Source: an uncultured Rhodocyclaceae bacterium (lineage in GTDB: Bacteria; Pseudomonadota; Gammaproteobacteria; Burkholderiales; Rhodocyclaceae). From it: a stretch of 64,000 bases of DNA. Of this stretch, positions 10,144 to 55,160 are shown one piece after another. A program made the translations under genes and the position numbers. The stretch's first letter is position 1. Each line of letters opens with the position of its first letter. The notes beneath the pieces were generated by a model, which had not been told where the DNA came from, made no database searches, and was given only the letters and a program-made list of their open reading frames with translations. The stretch spans positions 184,314 through 248,313 of the forward strand of contig CAKQRL010000001.1 in the NCBI GenBank assembly GCA_934271525.1, given 5' to 3'.

Positions 10144-10155
10144 TTTTTTCTCCTT

Positions 10156-10198
10156 TTTTCCACGGTAAACCAAAATTTTTTTGGTTTACCGTGGATTT
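10156..10198. repeat. palindromic repeat pair (TTTTTCCACGGTAAACC-AAAATTTTTTTG-GTTTACCGTGGATTTTG)
   Basis: Inverted arms between hisB and ccmI. The TAA inside the second arm is the ccmI stop codon. Confidence 0.9.
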
Positions 10199-22313: not shown

Positions 22314-22322
22314 TCGTTATTT

Positions 22323-28647: not shown

Positions 28648-28665
28648 GCTTTTCTCCTATAAGAG

Positions 28666-29550: not shown

Positions 29551-29649
29551 CTGCGGATTGCCACCTTGAAGAATGCAAAAAGGGTAACACAATTTAAACC
29601 CAATCGCATAATTTGCGATTTTCTTAAAATAAATTAAAAGTTTTGCAAT

Positions 29650-29707
29650 TTTCCACGGTAAACCTTTAAAAACTTTCAAAAAAACTTTTTGTTTACCGTG
29701 GATTTTT
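29650..29707. repeat. palindromic repeat pair (TTTTCCACGGTAAACC ... GTTTACCGTGGATTTTT)
   Basis: The TAA stop of the M50 peptidase gene lies within the second arm. Confidence 0.9.
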
Positions 29708-30350
29708 AACTGGGATAAACGGAAAAAATAAGGGCTAAAAGGCGCATAAGAAAAGCAATAGCTGGCAACATTATGCTGTTCAAAATGTTGGTGAAAAGCA
29801 AAATTAAAATAATCCAAAAGCCATAAGGTTCTATTTTGTTGAGAATTGCAGCAAGCGGTAGCGGCAACCAACCCACCGCGATTCTGCCGCCATCCAAAGG
29901 CGGAATTGGAATTAAATTTAAAACGATTAAAACCAAATTCACCAAAATACCGCTACCCGCCATCGCCACCCAAAATGTGGCATTGTTTGTGCCGTTTAAA
30001 AAGCAGAGTTTTAAAATCATCGTCCAAAAAAGCGCCATTGCCAAGTTGGCAGCGGGGCCAGCCAGCGCCACCCACGCCATATCGCGCCGCGGGTTTTTAA
30101 AAAATTGTGGATTAACCGGCACAGGCTTGGCATAACCAAACAAAAAACTACCGTTGCTAAACAACAAAATCAAAACAGGTATCAAAACCGTGCCGATGGG
30201 GTCAATGTGGCGGATGGGATTTAAAGTAATGCGCCCCATTTGTTCGGCTGTTGGGTCGCCAAAGTAGCGCGCCACATAGCCGTGCGCTGCTTCATGCAAC
30301 GTGATTGCCAAAATCACTGGTATGCTGATGGTTAAAATATTTTCAAGCAT
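29706..30350 (-). CDS. site-2 protease family (M50) membrane metalloprotease
   Basis: HEAAHG (HExxH) in a transmembrane helix, polytopic, 214 aa. Confidence 0.7.
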   Translation of the reverse strand: MLENILTISIPVILAITLHEAAHGYVARYFGDPTAEQMGRITLNPIRHIDPIGTVLIPVLILLFSNGSFLFGYAKPVPVNPQFFKNPRRDMAWVALAGPAANLAMALFWTMILKLCFLNGTNNATFWVAMAGSGILVNLVLIVLNLIPIPPLDGGRIAVGWLPLPLAAILNKIEPYGFWIILILLFTNILNSIMLPAIAFLMRLLALIFSVYPS

Positions 30351-30519
30351 TGTTTATTCTTAAAAAGTTTTGAAAATGCGCCAAGTTGCTCTGCGCTCAA
30401 CAATCGCAAAAGAAGCATTTTCTAACATTTCGCCCAAACGCCCAAACGATTTTCTACTATTGTTAAAAAATTGTTTTCTTAACATTTTGCTTAAAAAGAG
30501 TTGATAAATGGCAAATTTA

Positions 30520-30582
30520 AAAATCCACGGTCAACGGCTAAAAAATTTTAAAAAAAATCAACGTTTACCGTGGAAAAACGCC
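30520..30582. repeat. palindromic repeat pair (AAATCCACGGTCAACGG ... ACGTTTACCGTGGAAAAACGCC)
   Basis: Inverted arms upstream of the M50 gene and downstream of tsaC. Confidence 0.85.
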
Positions 30583-30605
30583 AATCGTTATTTTTTAATA
30601 TTTTT

Positions 30606-31229
30606 TTATTTTTGAAACGGCGAAACATCGCCGGCGCCGATGCGGATGATTTCAGGCGCAGCGCTTGTTAAATCAATCACCGAGGTTGGAATAACGCCGC
30701 AATGGCCAGCGTCCAACACCCAATCAATCATATTGTTTAAGCGCTCGCCGATTTCCCAGCCTTGCGTCAAAGGCTCAGAGTCGCCCGGTAGTTGTAAGGT
30801 AGCGCTTAGCATTGGTGCGTTTAGTTCTTTTAATAAACCTTGCGCCACAGCATGTGCGGGAATGCGAATGCCAATGGTTTTGCGTTTGGGGTGCATCACG
30901 CGGCGCGGCAATTCTTTGGAGCCTTCTAAAATAAACACATAAGCGCCCGGTGTGGCGGCTTTGAGCAAACGGTAACATTGGTTATCAACTTTGGAATATT
31001 GGGCAATTTCGGATAAATCCCGCACCATTAAGGTCAAGTGGTGGCGCGGGTCAAGTTGCCGAATTTCGCGAATGCGGTCAATGTTGCCTTTGTCGCCCAA
31101 GGCGCACGCCAAAATGTAGGAAGCATCGGTTGGCAAGGCAATCAGCGCGCCTTGGCGCACCACTTCTGCCGCTTGCTTCAAAAGCCGCGGCGCGGGGTGT
31201 TCGGGGTGAATTTGAACAATGCGCGTCAT
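30606..31229 (-). CDS. tsaC: L-threonylcarbamoyladenylate synthase (TsaC/YrdC family)
   Basis: 207 aa YrdC-fold (ALPTDASYILAC, KGNIDRIREIRQ). Confidence 0.8.
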   Translation of the reverse strand: MTRIVQIHPEHPAPRLLKQAAEVVRQGALIALPTDASYILACALGDKGNIDRIREIRQLDPRHHLTLMVRDLSEIAQYSKVDNQCYRLLKAATPGAYVFILEGSKELPRRVMHPKRKTIGIRIPAHAVAQGLLKELNAPMLSATLQLPGDSEPLTQGWEIGERLNNMIDWVLDAGHCGVIPTSVIDLTSAAPEIIRIGAGDVSPFQK

Positions 31230-31238
31230 TTTAAAATC

Positions 31239-32372
31239 TCAAAAAAAATCGGTGTTTACCGTGGAAAAAAGCGCTAATTCTACAAAATAGCGCGCGCCTA
31301 AGGACAAAATTTCATCGTTAAAATCATAATGCGGGTTGTGTAGCGGTGCGGAATCGCCGTTGCCAATCCATGCGTAACAACCGGGTTTTTCATCCAACAT
31401 AAAGGCAAAATCCTCAGAGGTCATTGCGGGGTTGGCTTGGGTTAAAACATTTTCTTTGCCAAAAACTTGTTGGGCAACATTTTGCGCAAATTGCGTGGCT
31501 TTGGAATGGTTGATGGTTGGCGGATAATGCGGTGTTAAATGCGATTGCACCAAAATGCCAAAACCCGCCGCAATGCCTTCTGCCATTTGGCGAATCTTGG
31601 GGAGAATTGTGTTTTCCAAAAGCGCTTTGTCAAAATAGCGCAGCGTTCCAGTTAGTTTTGCCACAGGCGGCAACACGTTAAAAGTATCGCCCGCGTGAAA
31701 TTGTGTAATGCTCAACACAAGCGGGTTTTGCGCCGATTTTTGCCGTTGAATAAAAGCTTGAAGCGTTGTAACAAAACTTGATGCCGCCAAAATCACATCA
31801 TCGCCTTCAAAAGGCAAAGCGGCGTGGCAACCGCGCCCAGAAAATTCAAATGCCACGTGGCAATTTCCTGCCATAATTGCGCCCGGGAACAACGCCATTT
31901 TGCCTGCTGCAAGCCCCGGCCAGTTGTGCAGTGCAAAAACGGCGCGGCAGGGAAATTGTTCAAATAAGCCGTCCTCAATCATTGCTTTTGCGCCTGCTCC
32001 GCCTTCTTCGGCAGGTTGAAAAATGAATGCCACGTTGCCTTTGAAGTCTTGCGATTCGGTTAAGATTTTTGCCGCTTTTAAAAGCATTGCCATATGCCCA
32101 TCGTGCCCGCAGGCGTGCATTTTGCCAAGATTTATAGAAGCGTAGGGTTTTTCGGTTTTTTCTAAAATTGGCAAAGCGTCCATGTCGGCTCTTAAACCGA
32201 TCAAGGGCGCAGAGTCGCTTCTTTTTAAGTGCGCAACCACGCCCGTTTTGCCAAGATTTTCTACAATTGGCAAACCTAATTTTTTCAAAAAATCTGCCAC
32301 AAAAGCGGCTGTGGCGTTTTCTTCATAAGCCGTTTCAGGATGCGCGTGCAAATGTTGGCGAATGTTTTTCAT
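31239..32372 (-). CDS. M20-family amidohydrolase (hippurate hydrolase / N-acyl-L-amino acid amidohydrolase-like)
   Basis: 377 aa. M20D motifs (HACGHDGH, metal-binding residues). Confidence 0.8.
   Translation of the reverse strand: MKNIRQHLHAHPETAYEENATAAFVADFLKKLGLPIVENLGKTGVVAHLKRSDSAPLIGLRADMDALPILEKTEKPYASINLGKMHACGHDGHMAMLLKAAKILTESQDFKGNVAFIFQPAEEGGAGAKAMIEDGLFEQFPCRAVFALHNWPGLAAGKMALFPGAIMAGNCHVAFEFSGRGCHAALPFEGDDVILAASSFVTTLQAFIQRQKSAQNPLVLSITQFHAGDTFNVLPPVAKLTGTLRYFDKALLENTILPKIRQMAEGIAAGFGILVQSHLTPHYPPTINHSKATQFAQNVAQQVFGKENVLTQANPAMTSEDFAFMLDEKPGCYAWIGNGDSAPLHNPHYDFNDEILSLGARYFVELALFSTVNTDFF
31252..31270. repeat. single repeat arm (GTGTTTACCGTGGAAAAAA)
   Basis: Between tsaC and the M20 gene. 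Confidence 0.8.
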
Positions 32373-32797
32373 TTTAAAAGTTCCTCCAAGCGTGCCATGT
32401 GGTCAAGGTTGGCGTGGTGGTAAGCGGATTTCACATAGTCTGCCAAATGCGCGTGTTCATTTGCCAAATCGCTGGTTTCATAAGCAAAGGTTAAGGCAAA
32501 ACCTTGGGATTCATCGCCTTCAATGGTGATGGTTAAATTGCCGCTCACATGCTCGCCCGAAGGAATTACATCAAAGGACAACCACGTTTCTTCTTGCCAG
32601 CGCACAATGTCGCGCACCACAATGTTGTTGGCAAAATGCAAGCGGCGAAAAATGGCATCATTTTTTCGTTCCACAATCGCAAAATTTTCCAGTGCGGCTA
32701 AAAATTGTGCGGGGTTTTCCACGCGCTCCCACAAGGCGCGCCACAAGTTGGGTCTGGTGGATTTGGCTTGAAGTTGTAAAGTTTCTTTAAAAATCAT
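32369..32797 (-). CDS. hypothetical protein (142 aa)
   Basis: ORF with overlapping stop/start coupling to the M20 gene. No family assignable from sequence alone. Confidence 0.5.
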   Translation of the reverse strand: MIFKETLQLQAKSTRPNLWRALWERVENPAQFLAALENFAIVERKNDAIFRRLHFANNIVVRDIVRWQEETWLSFDVIPSGEHVSGNLTITIEGDESQGFALTFAYETSDLANEHAHLADYVKSAYHHANLDHMARLEELLK

Positions 32798-32815
32798 CGT
32801 GGTAGACTGCGCAAA

Positions 32816-33505
32816 ATGATGGCATTAGAAAAAATTTTACAAAAAGAAGGCTTTGGCACGCGCCGCGCCTGCCGCCGTTTGATTGAAAGCGGCGCAGTGA
32901 AAGTTCAGGGCATTGTTTGCCAAAATCCAAGTGCGTTATTTTCTCAAAAAAATTTGCCGTTGACCGTGGAAAACTGCGATTTTTTAGCAAAAGAAAAGGT
33001 CATTTTGGCGTTCAACAAACCCGTGGGCGTGGAATGTTCGCAAAAATCTTTTCACCAAAGCATTTTTTCTTTCATTCCGCAACGCTTTGTTAATCGCGCA
33101 ATCCAGCCGATTGGGCGCTTGGATGTGGCAACATCTGGCTTGATTTTTTTAACAGACGATGGGCAGTTGAATCATTTTTTAACTCTTCCTAAAAACAAAA
33201 TCCCGCGTGTTTATATTGCCGAATGCGCCGAACCGTTGGCAGAAAACGCTTGTGCGCGCTTAAAAAAAGGTATTTTGTTGAAAAACGAAAAAATAAAAAC
33301 CATCGCCGAATCGGCAGAATTGTTGGATGAAAAAACGCTCAAAATTACGCTTTCAAGCGGCAAATACCACGAAGTGCGGCGCCTTGTCGGCGCGCTCAAC
33401 AATCGCGTTGTGGCTTTAAAACGCGTGGCTTTTGGCAAATTTTTTCTACCCGATGATTTGGCGCTTGGCGAATTTTTGGAAATAGAAAAGGATGCAATTT
33501 TATGA
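32816..33505 (+). CDS. rsuA: 16S rRNA pseudouridine(516) synthase RsuA
   Basis: N-terminal S4 domain (LEKILQKEGFGTRRACRRLIESGAVKV) and pseudouridine synthase motif GRLDVATSGL. Confidence 0.85.
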   Translation: MMALEKILQKEGFGTRRACRRLIESGAVKVQGIVCQNPSALFSQKNLPLTVENCDFLAKEKVILAFNKPVGVECSQKSFHQSIFSFIPQRFVNRAIQPIGRLDVATSGLIFLTDDGQLNHFLTLPKNKIPRVYIAECAEPLAENACARLKKGILLKNEKIKTIAESAELLDEKTLKITLSSGKYHEVRRLVGALNNRVVALKRVAFGKFFLPDDLALGEFLEIEKDAIL

Positions 33506-35402: not shown

Positions 35403-35405
35403 TGA

Positions 35406-35462
35406 TTTTCCACGGTAAACGCCAAAAAATTTTCAAAAAAATGCAAGGTTTACCGTGGAATT
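35406..35462. repeat. palindromic repeat pair (TTTTCCACGGTAAACGCC ... GGTTTACCGTGGAA)
   Basis: Inverted arms with an AAAAAATTTTCAAAAAAATGCAAG spacer between purC and guaA. Confidence 0.9.
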
Positions 35463-35493
35463 TGGCGCAAAAAAACGGCGCAAAGGAATAAAA

Positions 35494-41919: not shown

Positions 41920-41964
41920 GGTCGGGTTAAGAAAAAGAAAAAAGGTGATTATAAAGATTGCAAT

Positions 41965-42021
41965 TTCCCACGGTAAACTCCAAAAAATTTTGAAAAAAAT
42001 GCGGCGTTTACCGTGGAAAAT
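41965..42021. repeat. palindromic repeat pair (TTTCCCACGGTAAACTCC ... GCGTTTACCGTGGAAAA)
   Basis: The TAA stop of kdsB lies inside the second arm. Confidence 0.9.
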
Positions 42022-42775
42022 CGCGTTTTTTTAAACGGGATTTTAAAATTTGGCGCACATGCTCGGCATCTTCCAAGGTATCCACGCCAACAAAATCGCC
42101 ATTTTTTAAAATGGCCAAGGCAATTTTTTCGCCGTGCCAGAGTGTGCGCAACTGCTCCAACATTTCTATTTTTTCCAAAGGCGATGGCGGCAATTCCAAA
42201 AATCGTTTGACGAAAGCGGCGCGGTAGGCGTATAAGCCGATATGCTTGAAAGCCGCGCAGGGCATGGCATTGGGATTATCGCGCGAGAAAGGAATTGCTG
42301 CGCGCGAAAAATAAAGCGCCTCATTTTTTTGATTGGCAACCACTTTGACGTTATTGGGATTTTGAAAAGCCGCAAAATCTTTAAAAGGTGTTGCCAAAGT
42401 TGCCATTGCCGCGCCAGATTTTTCCAAAGTTGTTGCCACCAAATTGAGCGCTTCGGGGTTCATCAACGGTTCATCGCCTTGCAAATTCACAATGATTTCA
42501 TCATTCAAAAAACCTTGCAATTTCAAGGCTTGCGCCAAACGTTCCGTGCCGTTTTGGTGGTGTTTGTCGGTTAAAACGGCGGCGATGTTGTGTTGCTGGC
42601 AAGTGTGCAGAATTTTTTCATCATCGCAAGCCACCACCACGCTTAGGGCGTTGGATTGCAAAGCAATTTGCGCCACGCGCACAATCATTGGAATGCCGTT
42701 TAAATCAATAAGCGGCTTTTGTGGCAAGCGAGTGGATTCTAATCGCGCGGGAATAAAAACGTGAAAATCAGGCAT
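42008..42775 (-). CDS. kdsB: 3-deoxy-manno-octulosonate cytidylyltransferase KdsB
   Basis: MPDFHVFIPARLESTRLPQKPL N-terminus resembles E. coli KdsB (IIPARYASTRLPGKPL), 255 aa. Confidence 0.9.
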   Translation of the reverse strand: MPDFHVFIPARLESTRLPQKPLIDLNGIPMIVRVAQIALQSNALSVVVACDDEKILHTCQQHNIAAVLTDKHHQNGTERLAQALKLQGFLNDEIIVNLQGDEPLMNPEALNLVATTLEKSGAAMATLATPFKDFAAFQNPNNVKVVANQKNEALYFSRAAIPFSRDNPNAMPCAAFKHIGLYAYRAAFVKRFLELPPSPLEKIEMLEQLRTLWHGEKIALAILKNGDFVGVDTLEDAEHVRQILKSRLKKRDFPR

Positions 42776-42818
42776 TTTTGAAAAAAATGAAACGTTGACC
42801 GTGGAAAACAGCGAAAAA

Positions 42819-43376
42819 TCAGGGTTTTTTCTGCGCAGATTCGGGTGATTTTGCTGATTCGTTGGATTTTTCCATTTTTGCCAACGATTCTTTTACCGCA
42901 GCGGCAATGCCTTGGGTAGAAGTTAAATTGATTTTAAGCGTAGCGCCTACAAAAGCGCGTTGGTCGGGCGTGTATTCGCTAAACGACGCGCTGCGCGCCA
43001 ACAAGGCGTTGACTTCGTCATTCAATTTTTTGTATTTGCGCTCAAAATTTTTGCCGCTCAATTTGGCTGCATCTGAGGCGATTTGTTGTTCTAATGCCAT
43101 ATCTTCGGGCGACACTGCGGCAATGTAGTGCGCCATTTTTTTCATAATCTTGGTGAAATCGGCGTCAATTTTTTTTAAATCTTCTGTTGTCATTTTTTTA
43201 TTAAGCCGCTCCAAAAGAGCGCTCAACTCGGCTTTTAAAGCGCGGTCTTCTGCCATACTTAAAGATATTGGCAGGTTTTCAATTGCCGCTGCGGCTTTTT
43301 TTTCTGCCGAATTGTTTTGCTCTGCAAAAACTGGCAATGCCAAAAATGCGGCGCACAAAATTGCAATGGTTTTCAT
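42819..43376 (-). CDS. periplasmic hypothetical protein, possibly DUF1311/LprI-like (lysozyme inhibitor fold)
   Basis: Signal peptide (MKTIAILCAAFLALPVFA). Helical region with the same arrangement as the neighbouring lipoprotein. Confidence 0.4.
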   Translation of the reverse strand: MKTIAILCAAFLALPVFAEQNNSAEKKAAAAIENLPISLSMAEDRALKAELSALLERLNKKMTTEDLKKIDADFTKIMKKMAHYIAAVSPEDMALEQQIASDAAKLSGKNFERKYKKLNDEVNALLARSASFSEYTPDQRAFVGATLKINLTSTQGIAAAVKESLAKMEKSNESAKSPESAQKKP

Positions 43377-43390
43377 TTGAAATCTCCTTT

Positions 43391-43936
43391 TTAATAAATG
43401 CGTTGTTGCAAAGATTGCTGTGCAAGTGTTGCCATTTTTAAGAAAATGGCTTCAATGCCAAATTGAAATTCGGATGCCAAATAATTGCGTTCATCCAAAG
43501 TGTAATCGGCAAAATTTTTGTTCAATTCCAAGTTGGCTTGCAAAATTTCCATCTCGTTTTTGAATTTTTTGTTAAAACCTTCTTCGCCCAATTTTTGGCG
43601 TGCGTCTGCCAAATCCCACAATTCGGTTGGTTTGAGCGCCAGCACATAACGTTGCCAAAATGCCGCGCGGCGTTCCATTTTTTTGGCGTATTCGCTTAAA
43701 TCTTGCGCGTGCATTTGCAAAATGCCCTCAGAACCTCGGCTTGTTACTTCGCCCAATTCTTTGTAAAAAGCTTGAAATTCGGTTGTAGATAAAGCCTGCG
43801 GCAAATCGCGCGCTGTTGATTTTGTTGCGGTGTAAGGAATTTTGGCAACCGTAAAGTTTTCCGGTTTTTCATAAGTGGGCGCTGATGCGCAAGCCACAAG
43901 AATGCTTGCTGCAAAACCCAAAAAAATATTTTTCAT
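43391..43936 (-). CDS. lipoprotein, paralogous to the preceding gene
   Basis: Lipobox LVAC-A (MKNIFLGFAASILVACASA). Similar length and helical pattern as 42819-43376. Confidence 0.4.
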   Translation of the reverse strand: MKNIFLGFAASILVACASAPTYEKPENFTVAKIPYTATKSTARDLPQALSTTEFQAFYKELGEVTSRGSEGILQMHAQDLSEYAKKMERRAAFWQRYVLALKPTELWDLADARQKLGEEGFNKKFKNEMEILQANLELNKNFADYTLDERNYLASEFQFGIEAIFLKMATLAQQSLQQRIY

Positions 43937-43982
43937 TCAAGATTCCTTTTTCAAAAAAATTTTCAGTTGACCGTGGAAAAAA

Positions 43983-45809
<1,827 letters not shown>

Positions 45810-45832
45810 TTAAAAAAAATTTTGGGTTCACC

Positions 45833-48800
45833 GTGGAAAATTCCAAAAATTTGCCAAACTTGCCGATTTTTGAAAAGGAATCGGCGATTGTTGCCGCATT
45901 AGAAAAAAATCAAGTCGTTATTGTTGCCGGCGCCACAGGTTCGGGCAAATCCACGCAACTTGCCAAAATTGTTTTAAAAGCAGGCTTGGGGCAGAAAATT
46001 GCCCACACGCAACCGCGCCGCTTGGCGGCAAGAACCTTAGCCGCTCGGGTTGCTGATGAATTAAATATGCCAATAGGCAGCGGCGTGGGTTTGGAATTGC
46101 GTTTTGTAAATGAAACAAGCGAGAATGATTGTATTACTTTTTTAACCGATGGTTTATTACTTTCTAAAATAACGCGCGATAAACTTTTAAATCAATACGA
46201 TACCATTATTATTGACGAAGCGCACGAGCGGAGTTTGAATATTGATTTTCTCTTGGCGTATTTAAAAATTTTAATTCAAAAACGCAAAGATTTAAAAATA
46301 ATTATTACCAGCGCCACGATTGATACCGATAAATTTTCAAAACATTTTAATAATGCACCGATTATTGAAGTATCAGGCAAGTTATTCCCCGTAAATATTC
46401 ATTATTTAAATGAAGAAATGGCGAATGTGGATTTGTTAGAAAAAACAGCCGATATTGTAGAAAATTTAAATGGTAAAAAAGGCGATATTTTAATTTTTTT
46501 AGGGGGTGAAAAGGATATTGCAGAAACAATTAAAATATTGCGCAAACGCCCAAGTTTGAAAAACATGGAATTTTTGCCGCTTTATGCGCGATTAGCGCCA
46601 CAAAAACAAGCGCGGGTTTTTGAATTATCAAAAACACAACGCGTGATTTTGGCAACCAACGTGGCCGAAACTTCGCTCACTGTGCCGAATATTCGCTTTG
46701 TGATTGATTGGGGTTTGGCAAGAATCAAACGTTACGCTTACCACCAAAGAATTGAACGCCTGCCGATTGAAAAAATTTCGCAAGCCTCGGCAAATCAACG
46801 CGCAGGGCGCTGCGGGCGACTTTCAAGCGGCGAATGTTTTCGGCTTTATACCCAAAGCGATTTTGAAACTCGCCCCGCTTTTACGCCGCCCGAGATTTTG
46901 CGCGCAAATTTGGCGAATGTGGTTTTAAAAATGCGGGCATTGCATTTTAATAATACGGATTTATTTTTGGAATCTCCGCCTCAAAAAGCGTGGAGCGATG
47001 CGGAAAAAACCTTAAAAGAATTGAATGCTTTAAATGAAAATAACGGTTTAACAAAAATAGGAAAACGTTTAGCCGATTTGCCCATTGACGCGCGGCTTGG
47101 ACGCATTTTATTAGCAGCGGAACATTTAAATGTTTTAAATGAAATGCTAATTATTGTTGCTGCTATTTCTGTGCCTAATTTATTAGATGAAAATCCACGG
47201 TCAACTGAATATTTTTTTGAAAAAAATAATCCGTTTACCGTGGAAAAACAGCGTTCTGTTTTTATGGATTATTTATCATTATGGAATAAAAGAAAAAACA
47301 ACCATTCGCCAAAGTTTAAAGAATGGAGTGAGATTTATTTTCAACTCAAAAAAATATTTCAACCGAAAAAATCTGTTTTAAAATCTGCCCCAGATTTTTA
47401 TAAAAAAATACACGGCGCGATTTTAACCGGTTTTTTGGGTTTTATCGGCTTTAAAAGCGATGAAAAAGGTTTATACCAAGGCGTTAAAAATCTGCGTTTT
47501 TATTTGCACCCGAAATTAACAATTAAAAATCCACCGCGTTGGATTGTGGCAAACGAGTTGGTTGAAACAAGCCGACTTTTTGCCAGCGCCTTTGCGCAAA
47601 TTGAACCCGAATGGATTGAATCAGCGGCTTATAACTTAATTCAAAAACAATTTTTGGAACCGCATTGGGAAAAAAAATCGCAAGCCGTCATTGCTTATGA
47701 AAAAATTACGCTTTGGGGTTTAACGATTATTCCCAAACGGCGTGTTTTGTTTGGAGAAAAAGATAAAGCATTGTCGCGCCAAATATTTATTCAAAATGCC
47801 TTGGTACAAATGGATTTGCCTGTGGCGTTTTTAAACCGATGGGCATTTATTCAAAATAATTTAAAAATTATTCAAAAAATAAAAGAAATGGAAATAAAAC
47901 AACGGCGGCAAGATATTTTAATTGATGATAGTTTGATTTTTGATTTTTACAATGCGCATATTGATGCCAATGTTTATGATTTGAAAAGTTTTGAAGTGTG
48001 GTTGAAACATAACCCCAAAACGCTATTTTTATCGCAAAAAGATTTGATGAATCACCAAGCCAATGGCATAACCAATGAAAAATTTCCATCCTTTTTAAAA
48101 ATTGGTGAAAAAGCATATCCCTTGATTTATAACTTTGCGCCCAATGATGCAATGGATGGCGTTACTATTCAAATACCGCTATTGGATTTAAAAAACATTC
48201 CCTCCAAATGTTTGGAATGGTTGGTGCCCGGACTCATTAAAAACAAAGTATTGTTTTTGCTCAAAAGCTTGCCGCAAAAATACCGCGTGAAGATTCAACC
48301 ATTAGAAACTTTTACTGATGATTTTTTGGCAAAAGAAGATTTAAATTTAAACGATGGCATTGTTTTTAATCTTATTCAATTCATGCGCACAAAATACGCT
48401 TTTGAATCGCGAGGGTGGGCATTAAATGAACAACTTTTTCGCACAGAGAACCTGCCGCATTATTTTTTGATGAATGTTGAATTATTAGATGAAAATAAAA
48501 ATCGCTTGGCACTCTCACGCAATATTGATGATTTAAAAACACAATTTAAAGAATCCGCCAAAAAAGTGTTTGTTGCGCATATTCCAAAAGAAGAAACACA
48601 AGATTTTAAAAATTGGGATTTTGGCGATTTGGATGATTTGATTGAGTTAACCATCGCTGGCGAAAATGTGATTGGTTATCCAGCTTTGTGTTTTGAAAAA
48701 AATCGTTTGTTTTTAAACGTTTTTGATGATTTGGATTCTGCTACTTTGAATCATAAAATCGGTTTGTTGGAATTATTTCAGCGCGTTTTGAATGTTTATA

Positions 48801-49429
48801 AAAAAAGTTTGGAAAAAAACTGTTCTAATAGCCTTTTAATGTTGTTTATGCCTTTGGGCACGGCAGAAGAATTTAAAAAACAATGGTTGGCGCAGGTTTT
48901 TACAGAATGTTGCTTAAATGAACCATTGCCCAAAACCAAGGCTGCTTTTTTAAAACGCGTGGATAAAGCCAAACCCCGCTTAAACCTTGTGGGGCAAGAG
49001 ATGGCAAGGTTGCTCACAGAGATTTTGGAATTGTGGCGCAACCAAAAATTAAACAATGTTAAGGCTTTTCCAAACGCTTTGGAAGATTTGAATCGCCAAC
49101 GTGATTTTTTAATCCACAAACATTTTATTATTCAAAACTCTTGGGCGCGTTTAAAACAATTTCCGCGTTATTTAAAAGCAATGGATTGGCGCATTGAAAA
49201 AATTCGGCAAAACCCCGCACGGGATTTTCAAAATCAAAAAGCGATTGCTTATTTTTTAAATCTTTATTTGAGAGAAATTAAAAAACACCCGCAAAATCTT
49301 GCTTTAAAAGATTTTTATTTTTTGATTGAAGAATTGCGGATTTCTTTATTTTCAGATGGCAAATTAAAAACGCCAATGCCAATTTCAATTAAACGATTAG
49401 AAAAAGTTTGGGCTTCTTTAAAATTTTAA
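45833..49429 (+). CDS. hrpA: ATP-dependent RNA helicase HrpA (N-terminally short relative to E. coli)
   Basis: DEAH-box helicase: Walker A AGATGSGKST, DEAHER, SAT, a HA2/OB region and a long C-terminal domain. The track start (GTG 45833) lies inside a repeat arm, so the exact start is uncertain. It begins only 54 bp from the divergent thiC start. Confidence 0.85.
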   Translation: MENSKNLPNLPIFEKESAIVAALEKNQVVIVAGATGSGKSTQLAKIVLKAGLGQKIAHTQPRRLAARTLAARVADELNMPIGSGVGLELRFVNETSENDCITFLTDGLLLSKITRDKLLNQYDTIIIDEAHERSLNIDFLLAYLKILIQKRKDLKIIITSATIDTDKFSKHFNNAPIIEVSGKLFPVNIHYLNEEMANVDLLEKTADIVENLNGKKGDILIFLGGEKDIAETIKILRKRPSLKNMEFLPLYARLAPQKQARVFELSKTQRVILATNVAETSLTVPNIRFVIDWGLARIKRYAYHQRIERLPIEKISQASANQRAGRCGRLSSGECFRLYTQSDFETRPAFTPPEILRANLANVVLKMRALHFNNTDLFLESPPQKAWSDAEKTLKELNALNENNGLTKIGKRLADLPIDARLGRILLAAEHLNVLNEMLIIVAAISVPNLLDENPRSTEYFFEKNNPFTVEKQRSVFMDYLSLWNKRKNNHSPKFKEWSEIYFQLKKIFQPKKSVLKSAPDFYKKIHGAILTGFLGFIGFKSDEKGLYQGVKNLRFYLHPKLTIKNPPRWIVANELVETSRLFASAFAQIEPEWIESAAYNLIQKQFLEPHWEKKSQAVIAYEKITLWGLTIIPKRRVLFGEKDKALSRQIFIQNALVQMDLPVAFLNRWAFIQNNLKIIQKIKEMEIKQRRQDILIDDSLIFDFYNAHIDANVYDLKSFEVWLKHNPKTLFLSQKDLMNHQANGITNEKFPSFLKIGEKAYPLIYNFAPNDAMDGVTIQIPLLDLKNIPSKCLEWLVPGLIKNKVLFLLKSLPQKYRVKIQPLETFTDDFLAKEDLNLNDGIVFNLIQFMRTKYAFESRGWALNEQLFRTENLPHYFLMNVELLDENKNRLALSRNIDDLKTQFKESAKKVFVAHIPKEETQDFKNWDFGDLDDLIELTIAGENVIGYPALCFEKNRLFLNVFDDLDSATLNHKIGLLELFQRVLNVYKKSLEKNCSNSLLMLFMPLGTAEEFKKQWLAQVFTECCLNEPLPKTKAAFLKRVDKAKPRLNLVGQEMARLLTEILELWRNQKLNNVKAFPNALEDLNRQRDFLIHKHFIIQNSWARLKQFPRYLKAMDWRIEKIRQNPARDFQNQKAIAYFLNLYLREIKKHPQNLALKDFYFLIEELRISLFSDGKLKTPMPISIKRLEKVWASLKF
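47200..47249. repeat. complete palindromic repeat pair embedded in frame inside hrpA coding sequence
   Basis: AAATCCACGGTCAAC-TGAATATTTTTTTGAAAAAAATAATCC-GTTTACCGTGGAAAAAC is translated as ...NPRSTEYFFEKNNPFTVEKQ... within HrpA. Confidence 0.8.
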
Positions 49430-49440
49430 ATTGCAAAAAA

Positions 49441-49505
49441 AATCCACGGTCAACCGATTATTATTTTGATATTGTTAGTGTTTTTGTTCGTTGACCGTGG
49501 GAAAA
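49441..49505. repeat. palindromic repeat pair with a longer spacer (AATCCACGGTCAACCG ... CGTTGACCGTGGGAAAA)
   Basis: Convergent intergenic region between hrpA and the hypothetical gene. Confidence 0.85.
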
Positions 49506-49507
49506 TA

Positions 49508-50260
49508 TTAAATCATTTCGCGGATTTTTTCCAAAACAATGGGCATTTTGGAAAATACATTCAAACGTGCATTTTCATTTAAAGGGTCGCGTGCCAAAAT
49601 ATTCACCGCTTTTTCTAATTGTCGCGCAGCACCAGCCACATCGTTTAATTCAATTTGCATGGCTTCTTGCACCAACCAATCGGTGCTCAACTGCAAGGTT
49701 TCCATATTCGGCGGCAATTCGTTCAAAGCGCTGTGGATTAGTTCCAATTGTTCGGCGGCTTCGTCCAAAAAGAGTTGGTCAATAATTTCTGAGCGCCCAT
49801 CGTAATTCAAGGATTCTGCCGATTGCGTCAAACGTTTGGTGAAGTAGGTCAAGCGTGCGTTTAATTCGGGATGCTCCAAATCGGTGTCGCTCATCACTTC
49901 AAAAGTGCTGCAAAGCGCTGCTTTTAAAGAAAAAGCCTGCGGCAAGGTTGCCACGCTTTCATAGCGCCCAACGGCGTTCACCAAGGCTTCGGCAAAAGGC
50001 AGGCAATAAGGATCATTGGTTTTCAAAAGCAAGCGGTAGGTTTGCCATGCCAAATGGTGCAAGGCGTTTAAGCTTTCGTCTTCTTCCACCACCAAATTGC
50101 GCCATTGAATAAGCAAACGCCGCATGCACACTTGCCACGCATCGTTGACCGTTGGGTCAAAACGGCGCTGTGCTGCTTTTGCCAAAAGCGGCAAAATGGC
50201 ATTCAACATATTGGGCAGTTGCACGCGAAAGTCAGAATCAAGAGAAAGAGCAGGTGTCAT
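49508..50260 (-). CDS. hypothetical protein (about 250 aa)
   Basis: Clean ORF with no recognisable motif. Start probably at MTPALSLDSDF. Confidence 0.5.
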   Translation of the reverse strand: MTPALSLDSDFRVQLPNMLNAILPLLAKAAQRRFDPTVNDAWQVCMRRLLIQWRNLVVEEDESLNALHHLAWQTYRLLLKTNDPYCLPFAEALVNAVGRYESVATLPQAFSLKAALCSTFEVMSDTDLEHPELNARLTYFTKRLTQSAESLNYDGRSEIIDQLFLDEAAEQLELIHSALNELPPNMETLQLSTDWLVQEAMQIELNDVAGAARQLEKAVNILARDPLNENARLNVFSKMPIVLEKIREMI

Positions 50261-50360
50261 CGCAATTCCTTTAAAAAACAATAACTTATAGGAAGATATT
50301 ATGAAATTGCGTGAAGTTTAACTAAAAAAATAAATAAAATCAAATATTATTTTAATTTTT

Positions 50361-51176
50361 TTAAAGTTTTTTATTATTTTCCACGGTAAACGATGATTTT
50401 TTTTGAAAATGGCAATAAGAAAATAGAATGAAGCCTATCAAAATCATTGGCAAAGATAACCATTGTCCCATTGAAATGAAATAAGATTTGCCAAAAATGC
50501 CATCGTCTGGTTCTCTAAAAAACTCGGTGATAAAACGGCAACAACCATAACCAATTAAGAAAATAGCCGAGATTTTGCCTTGTTGTTTGGGTTTATAAAA
50601 CCACAACAAACAAAATAATAAAGCGCCTTCTAATAACATGTGGTAAATCTGTGATGGGTGGCGCGGCAACAAAGAACCCGATTGTGGAAAAACCATTGCC
50701 CACGGCAAATTGGCGTTTGTTATTCTGCCCCACAATTCGCCGTTAATAAAATTGCCTAATCGCCCAAACATTAAACCAAGCGGCACAAGTGGGGCGATAA
50801 AATCGGTGAGTTTTAACCACGCCATTTTGTTTTGATAAACAAAAATAGAAACGGCAAACAAAACGCCCAAAAAACCACCGTGAAAACTCATTCCGCCTTG
50901 CCAAATTTTGATGATTTCAAATGGTTGGTGAAAATAATAAATGGGATTATAAAAAAGCACTTCGCCCAAGCGCCCGCCCAAAATAATGCCGATAAAGGCG
51001 TAAAATAATAAATCGTCAAATTGTTGATGATTTAAAGGCGCTTGGTTTTGTTTGATTAAATAACGCCCCAAAAAGAGCGCTTGTAAATAAGCCAAAACAT
51101 ACATTAAACCATACCAATGAATTTTAAAAAATCCTAAATCAAGCGCCACGGGGTTGAAGTTGGGATGCGTTAACAT
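50361..51176 (-). CDS. lgt: prolipoprotein diacylglyceryl transferase Lgt
   Basis: N-terminus FKIHWYGLMYVLAYL resembles E. coli Lgt (VALHWYGLMYLVGFI). Polytopic, 271 aa. The last 9 codons (FTVENNKKL) are encoded by a repeat arm. Confidence 0.9.
   Translation of the reverse strand: MLTHPNFNPVALDLGFFKIHWYGLMYVLAYLQALFLGRYLIKQNQAPLNHQQFDDLLFYAFIGIILGGRLGEVLFYNPIYYFHQPFEIIKIWQGGMSFHGGFLGVLFAVSIFVYQNKMAWLKLTDFIAPLVPLGLMFGRLGNFINGELWGRITNANLPWAMVFPQSGSLLPRHPSQIYHMLLEGALLFCLLWFYKPKQQGKISAIFLIGYGCCRFITEFFREPDDGIFGKSYFISMGQWLSLPMILIGFILFSYCHFQKKSSFTVENNKKL
50377..50392. repeat. single repeat arm (TTTTCCACGGTAAACG) forming the 3' end of the lgt ORF
   Basis: Encodes ...FTVEN of the Lgt C-terminus on the minus strand. 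Confidence 0.7.
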
Positions 51177-51278
51177 TTTGTTTAAAAGGCATTAAAAAGT
51201 TTTGCATTATAAATAAGCAAGTTTGCTTTTAAAAGATTGTAAGCGTTAAAATTGCCGCATTCTATTGGGAGAAATAAT

Positions 51279-53126
51279 ATGCCAGCGTATCGCTCACAAA
51301 CTTCAACACACGGCAGAAATATGGCAGGCGCGCGCGCGTTGTGGCGCGCCACGGGAATGAAGGATGAAGATTTTAATAAGCCCATTATTGCGGTGGTTAA
51401 TTCTTTTACGCAATTTGTGCCCGGGCACGTGCATTTAAAAGATATTGGGCAAATGGTGGCGCGCGAAATTGAAAAAGCAGGCGGCGTTGCCAAGGAATTT
51501 AACACCATTGCCATTGATGATGGCATTGCCATGGGGCACGGCGGAATGTTGTATTCACTGCCCAGCCGTGATTTGATTGCCGATTCGGTGGAATATATGG
51601 TCAATGCGCATTGTGCCGATGCGATGATTTGCATTTCCAACTGCGACAAAATCACCCCCGGCATGTTAATGGCGGCGATGCGCTTGAACATTCCATGTGT
51701 GTTTGTGTCTGGTGGACCAATGGAAGCGGGCAAAGTGCATAACATCAAAGTGGATTTAATTGACGCGATGATTAAAGCGGGCGATTCCACCGTGAGTGAA
51801 CAAGATGTTGAACATTACGAGCGCTCGGCTTGCCCCACGTGCGGTTCTTGTTCTGGAATGTTTACCGCCAATTCTATGAATTGCCTAACCGAAGCCTTGG
51901 GGTTGAGTTTGCCGGGCAATGGCACGTTGGTTGCAACGCATCAAAATCGCCAAAAACTTTTTTTAGAAGCGGCGCGTTTAATTGTTCAAAATGCCAAGCG
52001 TTATTACGAAAACGATGATGTTTCGGTTTTGCCGCGCGAAATTGCGCAAAAAGGCGCTTTTGAAAATGCGATGACTTTGGATGTGGCAATGGGCGGCTCC
52101 ACCAACACGGTGTTGCATATTTTGGCGGTGGCGCAAGAAGCGGGCGTGGATTTTACAATGCGTGATATTGACCGCATTTCCAAAAAAACGCCGTGTTTGT
52201 GCAAAGTGGCGCCCGCCACGCAAAAATACCACGTGGAAGATGTGCATCGTGCAGGCGGTGTGATGGGCATTTTGGGCGAATTAGACCGTTTGCAGTTAAT
52301 CAACCGCACAATGCCTAGCGTGTTGATGAAAACCATCGGTGAAGAAATTGATACTTTTGATGTGATGCGTGCGGTGGCAGTTGATGTGCATGATTTTTAT
52401 AAAGCATCGCCCGGCGGCATTCCCAATACACAAGCTTTTTCGCAAAATCAATTTTTCAATGAATTGGATTTAGACCGCACACAAGGTTGCATTAGGAATG
52501 CCGAAAATGCGTATAGTTTGGACGGCGGCTTGGCGGTGCTTTACGGCAACATTGCCGAAGATGGTTGCATTGTGAAAACCGCTGGCGTGGATGAATCCAT
52601 TTTGGTTTTTTCGGGCAAAGCGCAAGTTTTTGAAAGCCAAGAAGATGCGGTAGAAGCCATTTTGGGCGGCAAAATCAAAGCTGGCGATGTGGTGGTGATT
52701 CGTTATGAAGGCCCCAAAGGTGGTCCGGGTATGCAGGAAATGCTTTATCCCACTTCTTATTTGAAATCCATGGGTTTGGGCAAAGAATGCGCACTTTTAA
52801 CCGATGGGCGTTTTTCGGGCGGCACTTCGGGCTTGTCTATTGGCCACGTCTCACCCGAGGCAGCCAATGGCGGCGCAATTGCTTTAATTGAAAACGGCGA
52901 TACGATTAAAATTGATATTCCACAACGCCAAATTCACCTTGCGGTATCTGATTCCGAACTCGCCGAACGGCGGCAAAAAATGCAAGAAAAGGGGAATGCC
53001 GCTTGGCAACCTGAAAATCGCCAACGCTTTGTTTCCAATGCGTTAAAGGCTTATGCGGCAATGGCAACATCGGCGGACAAAGGCGCAGTGCGTGATATTC
53101 AAAAGTTATCGCATTTAATGCCGTAA
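51279..53126 (+). CDS. ilvD: dihydroxy-acid dehydratase IlvD
   Basis: 616 aa from [27 protein letters not shown], nearly identical in pattern to the E. coli IlvD N-terminus. CPTCGSC cluster motif. Confidence 0.95.
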
Positions 53127-53175
53127 AGGTTTACAATGCCGTTTGAATATTGTTTTTTTAACTTTTGGAGGGAAC

Positions 53176-53481
53176 ATGAAAAAGCTCAGCCTAGCCGTCG
53201 TTGCCGCCGCTCTTGTTTTGGCGCCGCAAGCTTATGCGGATGAAGCCTTGGCAAAAGCCAAGAATTGCCGCACTTGCCATGTGGATGACAAAAAATTGAT
53301 CGGCCCAGCGTATAAAGAAGTCGCCGCCAAATACAAGGGCGACCCCAACGCCGTTAAAATGTTGGCAGAAAAAATGCGCAAAGGTGGCACGGGCGTGTGG
53401 GGCAAAGTGCCGATGCCGCCTAACCCATTGGTCAACGAACAAGAAGCCGAAACCTTGGCAAAATGGGTGTTGTCCAAATAA
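53176..53481 (+). CDS. periplasmic class I c-type cytochrome (c5/c551/c552-like)
   Basis: Signal peptide MKKLSLAVVAAALVLAPQAYA, heme-binding CRTCH, distal Met region. About 101 aa. Confidence 0.75.
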   Translation: MKKLSLAVVAAALVLAPQAYADEALAKAKNCRTCHVDDKKLIGPAYKEVAAKYKGDPNAVKMLAEKMRKGGTGVWGKVPMPPNPLVNEQEAETLAKWVLSK

Positions 53482-53498
53482 ACGCATTGTTTTTTTAC

Positions 53499-53525
53499 AA
53501 AAAAGCCTCTTTGGAGGCTTTTTTT
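53499..53525. terminator. rho-independent terminator (AAAAAGCCTCTTTGGAGGCTTTTTTT)
   Basis: GCCTC/GAGGC stem plus T-run after the cytochrome c gene. Confidence 0.85.
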
Positions 53526-53539
53526 GTGGTTGGAATCAA

Positions 53540-53554
53540 AAAATCCACGGTCAA
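53540..53554. repeat. single repeat arm (AAATCCACGGTCAAC)
   Basis: Upstream of cobB. Confidence 0.8.
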
Positions 53555-53583
53555 CTTGAAAAAAATTCAAAAAAAACAAAACA

Positions 53584-54351
53584 ATGAACAAACATTTGGA
53601 AAAAATTGATGCCCTTTTGGCTGATTTAAAAAAAGCCAAACGCGTTTTGGTGATTACCGGCGCGGGCATTTCTGCTGATTCGGGCTTGCCCACGTATCGC
53701 GGCGTGGCAGGGCTTTATAACGAAGGTTTAACCGAAGAAGGCTTGCGCATTGAAGATTGTCTGTCGGGTGCGGTTTTTCAAAAATATCCAGAAATTACGT
53801 GGAAATATTTGTGGCAAATTGGGGAAAACTGCCGCAAAGCCAAACCGAATCGCGCGCATGAAATCATCAGTGCGTGGCAAAATCGTTTTGAGCGCTTGTT
53901 GGTTTTTACGCAAAACATTGACGATTTGCACCGCCGCGCGGGCTCCAAAGATTTAATAGAAGTGCACGGCAATTTCAAAACTTTGCATTGCACACGTTGT
54001 GCGTGGGCATCGCCTTTGGATTTAAACGAATTATCCCAAGATAAACTCCCTCCCAAATGCCCCAAATGCGGCGCTGTGGCACGTGTGCCGGTTGTTTTGT
54101 TTGGGGAAATGTTGCCAGAGGATGCCATTTATAATTTTTCAAAAGCGTGGGAAGAAGGCTTTGATATGGTTTTTGTAATCGGCACCACGTGCAGTTTTCC
54201 GTATATTGCGCAACCTGTTTTGATGGCGGCGCAAAGCGGCTTGCCCACTGTTGAAATCAATTTGGACTCCACACCTGTTACACCTTTTGTGCGCCACCAC
54301 GTGGCAATTCCAGCGGCACAAGCGCTTGAAAAAATCAACGCATTGTTGTAA
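53584..54351 (+). CDS. cobB: NAD-dependent protein deacylase (sirtuin, CobB family)
   Basis: GAGISADSGLPTYRG, QNIDDLH, Zn-binding CxxC...CxxC (CTRC ... CPKC). Confidence 0.85.
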   Translation: MNKHLEKIDALLADLKKAKRVLVITGAGISADSGLPTYRGVAGLYNEGLTEEGLRIEDCLSGAVFQKYPEITWKYLWQIGENCRKAKPNRAHEIISAWQNRFERLLVFTQNIDDLHRRAGSKDLIEVHGNFKTLHCTRCAWASPLDLNELSQDKLPPKCPKCGAVARVPVVLFGEMLPEDAIYNFSKAWEEGFDMVFVIGTTCSFPYIAQPVLMAAQSGLPTVEINLDSTPVTPFVRHHVAIPAAQALEKINALL

Positions 54352-54382
54352 GAAAAAAGTTGCAAAAAAACAACGGCGCATT

Positions 54383-54420
54383 TTTTGTTGCACTGCAAAA
54401 AAATTTATCGCACTGCAAAA
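54383..54420 (+). promoter_or_regulatory. direct repeats TTGCACTGCAAAA / TCGCACTGCAAAA upstream of the phasin gene; candidate operator
   Basis: Two GCACTGCAAAA copies spaced 9 bp apart, 50-85 bp upstream of the phasin ATG. The 17-mer TTGTTGCACTGCAAAAA recurs at 41196, and GTTGCACTGCA lies upstream of phaC. Confidence 0.35.
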
Positions 54421-54469
54421 TTTTTTTAAAATGCCTTCTTTTTTATTTAGCTTAACAAAGGAGTGTTTT

Positions 54470-54997
54470 ATGTTTTTCACGACCACCCCACAAGAGTCCT
54501 TTAAGGAACAAACGAATTTGGCGGGCTATTGTATTAGCACCACTTTGGATGGCATTGAGCGTGTGGCGATGTTGAATTTATCCACCGCTCGCTCGACAGT
54601 GGAAATGGCGTTGTCTTCTATGAGCGGTTTAACGGGCGCCAAAGATTTGCGGGTAACCACTTATTTGCACAAACATTTAACGCCCGCTTTGGAACAAGGC
54701 GCACAATACACACGCAATTTTATTGAAATCAACAGCAACACACGCCACAAAATTGCCGAGCGTGTTGAAAATAAAATTGCCGAACAGCAAAATGAATTTC
54801 ACCATTTGATTGAACGCTCACTTGACCAAGGACCTTTGGCGAGTCAAAAAGCGGTTTCTATGGTGAAAAGCGCCATCCGTGCCACCACCGATACTTTGGA
54901 AGGCATCAATGAAGCTGCCAAACGTGCTGGCGAAATGGTGGAAGCAAGCACTTCTGCGGTGGTCAATGCCACGGCAAAATCGGCATGCAAAATTTAA
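54470..54997 (+). CDS. putative phasin (PHA granule-associated protein)
   Basis: 175 aa from MFFTTTPQESFKEQ with AAGGAG Shine-Dalgarno. Helical, Ala/Thr-rich, phasin-like composition; PHA genes are nearby. The track ORF start at 54251 is inside cobB. Confidence 0.45.
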   Translation: MFFTTTPQESFKEQTNLAGYCISTTLDGIERVAMLNLSTARSTVEMALSSMSGLTGAKDLRVTTYLHKHLTPALEQGAQYTRNFIEINSNTRHKIAERVENKIAEQQNEFHHLIERSLDQGPLASQKAVSMVKSAIRATTDTLEGINEAAKRAGEMVEASTSAVVNATAKSACKI

Positions 54998-55016: not shown

Positions 55017-55054
55017 CGAAAAACGGCGTTTTTTGGAAAAACGCCGTTTTTTTG
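55017..55054. terminator. rho-independent terminator (AAAAACGGCGTTTTTTGGAAAAACGCCGTTTTTTTG)
   Basis: Stem ACGGCGTTTT/AAAACGCCGT plus T-run downstream of the phasin gene. Confidence 0.8.
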
Positions 55055-55072
55055 AATTGTTTCAAAAAAATT

Positions 55073-55090
55073 ACACGTTTACCGTGGAAA
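55073..55090. repeat. single repeat arm (CACGTTTACCGTGGAAAA)
   Basis: Follows the phasin terminator. Confidence 0.8.
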
Positions 55091-55160
55091 ATTTTATTTT
55101 TTTAGGCAAAATATAGTTTTTAAAATGTAGAATGTAGAAAAGCAACAGCGGGTTTTTGTT

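Follow-up and report, generated by a model that had tools for sequence, protein, structure and literature searches.

The palindrome inside the hrpA gene of an uncultured Rhodocyclaceae bacterium, seen in a 64,000-nt stretch of its DNA (assembly GCA_934271525.1, contig CAKQRL010000001.1, positions 184,314 to 248,313; this whole stretch is called the window, and coordinates are positions within it), is made of two inverted copies, sharing a centre, of a genome-wide motif that is defined at the level of DNA. The real repeat unit is a bipartite motif of 31-35 nt, T5-S-A7-TT-N4-GTTK-ACCGTGGA-WWWT, and its copies are independent realisations of that motif, not descendants of a master copy. Comparison with homologues indicates that within hrpA the motif arose in a tolerant segment through base substitutions, with protein length unchanged. 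As to what the motif is for, we put at about even the chances that it is the DNA uptake signal sequence of a low-GC relative of the Rhodocyclales, a reading reached by analogy with known uptake sequences and weighed below against its alternatives.

The hrpA gene is a single unbroken open reading frame (ORF) on the plus strand (45833-49429; 1198 aa in translation of the window), and its product is 100% identical to the representative of a protein cluster with 24 members, in which Pfam recognises the full HrpA domain set (DEAD, Helicase_C, HA2, OB_NTP_bind and DUF3418). The 51-nt dyad occupies 47194-47244 and reads TCCACGGTCAAC-TGAATA-TTTTTTT-G-AAAAAAA-TAATCC-GTTTACCGTGGA. An earlier, sequence-only reading of this DNA had described a complete palindrome read through here without a stop or frameshift, as the intact ORF confirms; the start it gave, 47200, clips the left arm. 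In translation the dyad yields NPRSTEYFFEKNNPFTVE (N454-PRSTEYFFEKNNPFTV-E471). Its left unit, on the minus strand (47190-47224), comprises an AAAA flank, the arm TCCACGGTCAAC (47194-47205), the spacer TGAATA, a T7 tract (47212-47218) and the central G (47219), and codes for N-P-R-S-T-E-Y-F-F. The right unit, on the plus strand (47214-47248), runs from T5 through the same G at 47219 to A7 (47220-47226), the spacer TAATCC, GTTT-ACCGTGGA (47233-47244) and a second AAAA flank, and codes for F-E-K-N-N-P-F-T-V-E-K, which is the motif's commonest coding frame. The left arm carries the C variant GGTCAAC, read as Ser; the commoner GGTAAAC would put a TAA stop in frame. The case of hrpA is rare: of 169 dyads, no more than 9 fall within a stop-free span of 600 nt or longer, and some of these spans are ORF extensions.

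The bipartite nature of the unit is apparent when the 52 copies of the 8-mer core in the window (0.81/kb) are aligned on the core: in every copy TT-S-AAAAAAA stands ~6 variable bases upstream of GTT(T/G)ACCGTGGA, which is followed by AAAT or TTTT. The 13-nt arms described before do not occur as stand-alone 13-mers, each copy having its A7 at a fixed distance from the core, and for the same reason the 'canonical spacer' TTTTTTTGAAAAAAA is nothing other than the two abutting A-tracts of inverted units. With at most one mismatch allowed, ACCGTGGAAAA occurs 39 times in the window against 2.6 expected, and none of 100 shuffles gave as many. We followed the motif further in a metagenome set consisting of contigs that match the strict unit (at least 117 loci, 1.05 Mb, GC 34-49%), which holds 869 cores, or 0.83/kb, a density somewhat inflated by the way the loci were picked; the host carries about one motif copy per 1.2 kb. 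Position weight matrices from the window (n=52) and from the metagenome set (n=860) show an invariant core and a strong A7 tract, with next to no information in the spacer. In the metagenome set, strand use is balanced (462 plus to 459 minus), and perfect 12-mers number 716 against 218 one-mismatch variants. Facing pairs of units show a sharp peak at a core-to-core distance of 43 nt, where 131 of the ~230 pairs fall (169 at 42-44 nt), with minor classes at 32 and 10 nt. Singles make up about half of all copies; of 207 strict singles, 120 were folded, and with a mean z of -0.13 and 1% below -2 they have no hairpin potential.

The sequence-only reading had taken the hrpA palindrome for an in-frame colonisation of coding sequence reminiscent of the Rickettsia palindromic elements (RPEs). 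Alignment of orthologues gives replacement instead of insertion. The element-encoded stretch of HrpA aligns column for column with SVQDPRERPxExQEAADEAHxxFxxE in eight distant betaproteobacterial HrpAs, with no element-sized gap, and against E. coli HrpA (PDB 6zwx, HMMER) there are only indels of 1-2 residues, amounting to a net ~+2 residues and not 17. No gap opens at the units of rsuA and ccmF when their products are aligned to H. influenzae RsuA (1vio) and Thermus CcmF (6zmq), respectively, and in one relative, L002, the Lgt tail lacks the core with its codon number unchanged. The net length change at the units is thus ~2 aa in HrpA and zero in RsuA, CcmF and the Lgt tail, and the insertion that would mark an RPE or a miniature inverted-repeat transposable element (MITE) is not seen. 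At the flanks of the units we found no target-site duplication, identical flanks being no more frequent than in the control at k ≥4.

How the site in hrpA changed can be followed in a codon alignment of four relatives, in which the dyad site is common to all and the arms differ by substitutions alone: the right arm reads ACCGcGGA in L002, the left arm has CCGCAG in L003 versus CCACGG in the window, and in L004 the left arm is absent and the right unit perfect. The motif columns are identical even at synonymous sites (GAA, AAA, ACC, GTG, GAA), and the N6 codons vary; since synonymous positions stay fixed while N6 drifts, it must be the DNA and not the peptide that is under constraint. Comparison of near-identical strains shows that one substitution is enough to create or destroy a core, as at 17416 and 22188. 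The A-tract is A7 or A8 at 16668 and 22285, the sole class of indel in 21.9 kb of strain comparison. Site histories were traced for hrpA and lgt, as tblastn of the fetched loci returned no orthologues of CcmF, CheZ, RsuA, LolC or GuaA. Among the 131 dyads of exactly 51 nt in the metagenome set there are 127 distinct sequences, and pairing the spacers within a dyad gives no more complementarity than pairing shuffled partners. The near-random spacers, the missing target-site duplication and the excess of perfect 12-mers exclude a MITE or REPIN with recent transposition, and likewise any selection for a longer stem. Together the data speak for a process by which particular positions stay perfect in thousands of sites that are independent of one another.

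What the substitutions did to the protein can be considered with the help of an AlphaFold2 (AF2) model of HrpA built from a 40-sequence alignment. The mean predicted local distance difference test score (pLDDT) is 80, and it drops below 50 exactly at residues 453-473, matching the element-encoded residues 454-471; this is the sole low-confidence patch in that part of HrpA, and confident helices stand on either side. The left arm replaces the nearly invariant QDPRxRP of other HrpAs, and at the dyad site the clade has lost a conserved motif, not gained a loop. The region of residues 446-454, which is without QDPRxRP, belongs to a protein ~43% identical to other betaproteobacterial HrpAs. At its N-terminus (45833-46100), HrpA is also without a stretch of up to ~100 residues, which most of the aligned outgroup proteins have ahead of the helicase core. 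In at least one other strain, on a contig of 218,234 bp, the gene calls divide hrpA into products of 820 and 393 aa. The break apparently lies far 3' of the dyad, and the gene may thus be in decay in some strains.

Copies of the motif are concentrated between genes. Of the window's intergenic regions of at least 30 nt, 25/37 bear a unit, and in the large set units are held by 90% of convergent, 63% of tandem and 48% of divergent regions. Single units are oriented without regard to the direction of transcription (29 to 20). Stop-free spans of at least 600 nt contain ~18% of the cores, with all six frames represented, and 47% of the coding copies (76/161) use the frame x-E/Q-K-N/K-x-x-L/F/S-T-V-E-N/K. 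The T-V-E-N/K peptides noted before in cheZ, rsuA and ccmF belong to whole units translated there: SQKNSASTVEN in cheZ (24825-24856, minus), in the N-terminal stretch before the part alignable to E. coli CheZ; SQKNLPLTVEN in rsuA (32943-32974, plus); and an 11-residue translation in ccmF (12770-12801, minus). As had also been noted, a unit sits at the end of lgt (50376-50407, minus), in the C-terminal tail, where it is read FQKKSSFTVEN and its core ends 19 nt short of the stop codon; it is present in L003 and L004 as well.

An exact search of 2.9 million IMG/VR viral contigs for the strict 28-nt pattern A7-N6-GTTTACCGTGGAAAA gave no match, in contrast to the at least 117 stretches of metagenome contigs that carry it. 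Rfam returns no match in the window at the gathering threshold, and the 11- and 12-mer core text appears in the searchable literature in primers only. A promoter reading, with the A-tract as UP element and TTGACC as -35 box, was rejected, no -10 signal being found 17 nt downstream in 860 copies; likenesses to the DnaA box, parS and the Noc site were ruled out by copy number and by the missing symmetry that these sites require.

The motif extends well beyond the strain at hand. The closest relatives of HrpA are metagenome proteins with 87%, 78% and 55% identity, the next being betaproteobacterial proteins at ~43%; IlvD is ~80% identical to that of Dechloromonas, Azospira and Azonexus. The host has a GC content of 44%, and its sequences are present in many samples. 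The contigs of the three HrpA relatives, L002, L003 and L004, share synteny with the window and have a motif density of 0.6-0.7/kb, and the positions of the motif are retained in species whose DNA is ~80% identical and in the hrpA allele with 55% protein identity. Two further sites around hrpA illustrate this: a single unit at the 5' end of the gene (45810-45841, plus) has a counterpart at or near the hrpA 5' end in L002, L003 and L004, and the position of an inverted pair just 3' of the hrpA stop (49439-49504; TCCACGGTCAAC ... GTTGACCGTGGg, the partner having one mismatch) is conserved in the same three.

A sister lineage, represented by three independent assemblies (L004, L125 and L126, including the NCBI metagenome-assembled genome (MAG) GCA_050872585.1), was compared with the window over 42200-54250. 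It is 97-100% identical in kdsB, hyp181-thiC, the 5' part of lgt, ilvD and cytC-SIR2, and just 50-70% identical across 45430-50663, which takes in hrpA, hyp250 and the 3' part of lgt; the same low identity is found in the short intergenic patches 51113-51299, 53089-53227 and 54247-54547. At 55% aa identity, the hrpA allele of the sister lineage stands farther from that of the window than the alleles of separate species do (87%, 78%). The pattern is a sharp recombination mosaic, in which the imported segment has the same motif at the same sites. A chimeric assembly behind the L004 mosaic was considered and dismissed; the two further independent assemblies, one of them the NCBI MAG, show the same pattern. 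Two unannotated genes here vary in presence and absence: hyp250 (49508-50260, 250 aa, between hrpA and lgt) is absent from L002, and hyp185 (42819-43376, 185 aa, beside kdsB) from L125; both have units in the adjacent intergenic regions.

The dyad in hrpA folds strongly (-24.2 kcal/mol, z -5.8), and the use of dyads as hairpins deserves separate consideration. When the flanks of dyads are classed on the strand reading TCCACGGT...ACCGTGGA, the counts are A/A 52, T/T 44, A/T 25 and T/A 25, so that for most dyads a U-run follows the hairpin when it is transcribed from one side but not from the other; a T-run flanks 71% of dyads, either on one side or on both, and 25/169 are without a T-run in either direction. 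In the convergent gaps lolD/cheA and MTase/hxlR, the runs face the incoming transcripts. The former gap holds a four-arm cluster (22181-22314), whose first pair is followed by a T-run on the plus strand and whose second pair is preceded by an A-run, which is a U-run on the cheA transcript and fits terminator use; the core at 22188 in this cluster is polymorphic between strains (T/C). Several operon-internal dyads have a T-run on the antisense strand only, and a single unit adjoins a canonical GC-rich terminator at 55019-55091. In hrpA itself, A-runs flank the dyad on either side of the sense strand, and the transcript accordingly lacks a U-run. Going by these flanks, dyads are plausibly co-opted as terminators where a T-run is present.

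A motif that is strand-blind, near-perfect, not copied from a master, present at ~0.8/kb, fitted with a phased AT-tract, frame-biased and characteristic of a clade has the footprint of the DNA uptake sequences (DUS) of the Neisseriaceae and the uptake signal sequences (USS) of the Pasteurellaceae, and for this reason we rate an uptake signal as its likeliest function. Sequence-specific DNA uptake is documented in these two bacterial families only (PMC3630211; 10.1101/2025.10.24.684340). Their genomes hold 1,465 cores in H. influenzae and 1,892 in N. meningitidis (PMC7811141), about half of their uptake sequences lie in terminators (PMC7811141; 10.1101/2025.10.24.684340; PMC3630211), and copies within genes are frame-biased (10.1101/2025.10.24.684340). 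The present motif resembles the Pasteurellaceae USS in having a short, near-invariant core with AT tracts on one side and variable bases between, in its density of ~0.8/kb, in the equal use of strands, in occurring as singles and as inverted pairs with pairs at probable terminators, in the frame bias of its in-gene copies without indels and in the homologous positions shared by related species; even the reverse complement of its core, TCCACGGT, ends in CGGT, as does the Hin-USS AAGTGCGGT. It departs from them in its core, GTTKACCGTGGA, which is unlike both Hin-USS AAGTGCGGT and Apl-USS ACAAGCGGT (PMC3630211), in a single A7 tract that is much more conserved, in the palindromic T5-S-A7 centre with its fixed 43-nt dyad and in a stronger intergenic bias; its host, moreover, is a betaproteobacterium allied to the Rhodocyclales, for which uptake is argued from likeness. 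With the Neisseriaceae DUS, which are recognised by the minor pilin ComP, it has in common a betaproteobacterial host, a density of ~0.8-1 copy/kb, a large share of copies in inverted repeats that may serve as terminators, a clade-marking character like that of a dialect and mosaic alleles between lineages, the difference being that DUS are 10-12-mers without a phased A-tract. To our knowledge, none of the DUS dialects resembles GTTKACCGTGGA. By this comparison of cores the motif would be new, matching no described DUS or USS core.

Let us assume that the motif is indeed an uptake signal. A surface receptor of the type IV pilus or competence machinery would then prefer motif-bearing DNA, and repeated uptake and recombination of DNA from the own clade would drive the motif to a high, near-perfect copy number wherever it is tolerated. 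The junction of T-tract and A-tract, ~two helical turns from the core, might ease kinking of the DNA at the pore, as has been proposed for the AT tracts of the Haemophilus USS (PMC7811141; 10.1101/2025.10.24.684340; PMC3630211). Dyads would arise cheaply, the T5-S-A7 centre being palindromic already: as the centre reads alike on both strands, adding another core at the mirrored distance is enough to complete a second unit, which accounts for the fixed 43-nt dyad. Such dyads could then be co-opted as hairpins, with termination only where a T-run follows, and the hrpA mRNA would read through. Six prepilin-type genes, matching the N-terminal methylation-domain model only, and one PilT-like ATPase are found on motif-bearing contigs. 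The recombination mosaic around hrpA, the lack of the strict motif in viral contigs and the low pLDDT of the element-encoded segment also belong to the context that favours this reading. To the fuller proposal, that this is a third, independently evolved family of uptake sequences, the first outside the Neisseriaceae and Pasteurellaceae, which marks an uncultured low-GC betaproteobacterial clade related to the Rhodocyclales and whose drive overwrote the HrpA motif and supplied stop codons, we give slightly less than an even chance.

A number of observations weigh against an uptake signal. No ComP orthologue that could serve as cognate receptor was identified among the genes of the motif contigs, and crude motif searches of 1.1 Mb gave no DprA, ComEA or ComEC, a result that does not amount to absence but lends no support. 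The intergenic bias is ~30-fold per base, stronger than is known for the Haemophilus USS. Known uptake sequences reportedly favour poorly conserved protein segments, and in hrpA the left arm took the place of the nearly invariant QDPRxRP. The regularity of the 43-nt spacing (131 of ~230 facing pairs) exceeds that of known DUS and USS pairs and could equally fit a dimeric DNA-binding protein. The metagenome loci were picked for at least one strict match, which inflates their density somewhat, the unselected window giving an equal value. Lastly, conjugation or transduction could also produce the recombination mosaic.

The dimeric protein just mentioned leads to a reading in which the units are sites for an abundant cytoplasmic DNA-binding protein, nucleoid-associated or chromosome-organising, that would sit on singles as a monomer and on 43-nt dyads as a dimer, with a bend at the A-tract and selection acting locus by locus. 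The bipartite motif with its A-tract at a fixed distance, the very sharp spacing of dyads, the indifference to strand and to transcription direction, and copies that are unrelated by descent at positions conserved across species would all suit such a protein. Known nucleoid-protein sites, however, are far less uniform, and site-by-site selection would struggle to keep ~0.8 near-perfect sites per kb with 716 perfect against 218 one-mismatch 12-mers. Nor is there an obvious gain from placing costly full units inside proteins in six frames, and no candidate protein was identified. We regard this reading as unlikely, if deserving of serious attention. Somewhat more doubtful, in our opinion, is a kinship with the repetitive extragenic palindromic (REP) sequences and bacterial interspersed mosaic elements (BIMEs), including REPINs, of Enterobacteria and Pseudomonas, according to which the palindromes between cistrons would work as RNA or DNA hairpins (terminators, protection of mRNA 3' ends, or gyrase or IHF sites), possibly mobilised by a RAYT (REP-associated tyrosine transposase), with a few spilling into coding sequence. 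Like REPs, the units are abundant, favour gene 3' ends and the spaces between cistrons (25/37 regions in the window, 90% of convergent ones) and form inverted pairs with defined linkers at fixed spacing; flanking T-runs agree with gene direction in several cases, and the hrpA dyad folds as strongly as given above. A single REP, however, is itself a hairpin, strictly extragenic and of a species-specific family, whereas about half of the present copies are singles without hairpin potential, ~18% lie in ORFs, 48% of the divergent, promoter-only regions are occupied, and motif and positions are common to several species, including the hrpA allele with a 55%-identical product. Spacer complementarity in the dyads is at chance, which means that no extended stem is selected, 25/169 dyads have no T-run either way, no Rfam family matches, and a crude HUH pattern search of 5009 ORFs gave no convincing Y1/HUH transposase.

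Two narrower readings we hold to be very improbable. Taking the dyads for the genome's preferred intrinsic terminators, and all other copies for decayed ones, would account for the occupancy of convergent regions (90%) and for the T-run on one or both sides of 71% of dyads; it would leave unexplained why hairpin-less singles retain a perfect core and A-tract, why copies occur in coding sequence and in divergent regions, why several operon-internal dyads have an antisense-only T-run, and why a canonical GC-rich terminator stands beside a single unit at 55019-55091. The other, in which hrpA and further genes received a mobile RPE-like or MITE palindrome by in-frame transposition, takes its appeal from a complete palindrome translated stop-free in an intact gene and from the many genomic copies, and the translation of a palindromic repeat within functional proteins is a trait that RPEs have too. 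Yet RPEs add a peptide of element length relative to orthologues, and their copies are related over the whole length. Here there is neither an element-sized insertion relative to homologues nor a target-site duplication, half-units stand alone, 127/131 dyads have a sequence of their own and near-random spacers, point mutations make and unmake the arms, and the site is common to all four lineages compared; we consider this scenario largely refuted.

Irrespective of its function, the motif has consequences at the ends of genes. The stop TAA of a CcmI-like TPR gene (10186-11520) and of kdsB lies inside CCACGGTAAAC: in the former, it is the arm TAA at 10186-10188 (minus) of a short inverted pair (10155-10199) whose cores are 29 nt apart; in the latter, the arm TAA at 42008-42010 (minus) of a dyad with one mismatch in one arm (41960-42021). 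Both stops are in the same frame as the hrpA left arm, with the A variant GGTAAAC giving the TAA. The proposal that the TAA of GGTAAAC serves as stop codon therefore holds for these two genes; in the M50 peptidase gene, which had been named along with them, the stop is upstream of the arm (gtTAAaaatccacggtaaa). At the other end, the core GTG is the first start-like codon of the ORF in hrpA (45833), lolC (20262), guaA (35455) and ccmA (17372), and ORF finders and public gene calls place the starts of these four genes there. In hrpA it had been thought the only start-like codon available, which is incorrect: in-frame TTG codons lie 6 and 9 codons beyond it (45851 and 45860). In ccmA and guaA, an in-frame ATG follows 13-14 codons downstream. 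That of guaA, 13 codons after the core GTG of a canonical 51-nt dyad that occupies the entire orf358-guaA spacer (35405-35463), is preceded by AAAGGA and opens what we take to be a typical GuaA N-terminus. From this context the downstream ATG seems the likelier start of guaA and ccmA, and starts at the core GTG look like a systematic annotation artefact of the repeat.

The 380-nt ccmB-ccmA spacer (16318-16697) contains three units in the same orientation (cores 16429, 16489 and 16631), direct arrays being otherwise rare, and a called ORF of 111 aa (16319-16654) spans all three; it has no Pfam match and is probably no gene. The motif thus explains annotation errors in these genomes, namely ORFs stretched to a core GTG, an ORF called across three intergenic units and stops donated by arms.

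A few features of the window stand apart from the motif. The cumulative GC skew has its minimum at ~28000-33000, and the divergent ataL/rsuA pair (32797/32816) marks a change from genes mainly on the minus strand to genes mainly on the plus strand; this switch may be a strand effect only, or may be related to replication. A dynamin-family GTPase (662 aa) adjoins a DUF3334/CheX-like protein at 2327-4961, and a database look-up of the protein at 2973-4961 returned no record. A Ser/Thr kinase and a PP2C phosphatase form a pair directly upstream of lolCD (18332-20244).

It has long been debated whether uptake sequences owe their origin to molecular drive or to selection for 'self' DNA. If the motif described here is an uptake signal, the phenomenon would be more widespread than the two families, and the uncultured clade would provide an independent test of the drive model, with a motif that carries much more information and forms fixed dyads. 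It would also mean that uptake specificity can be found from metagenomes alone.

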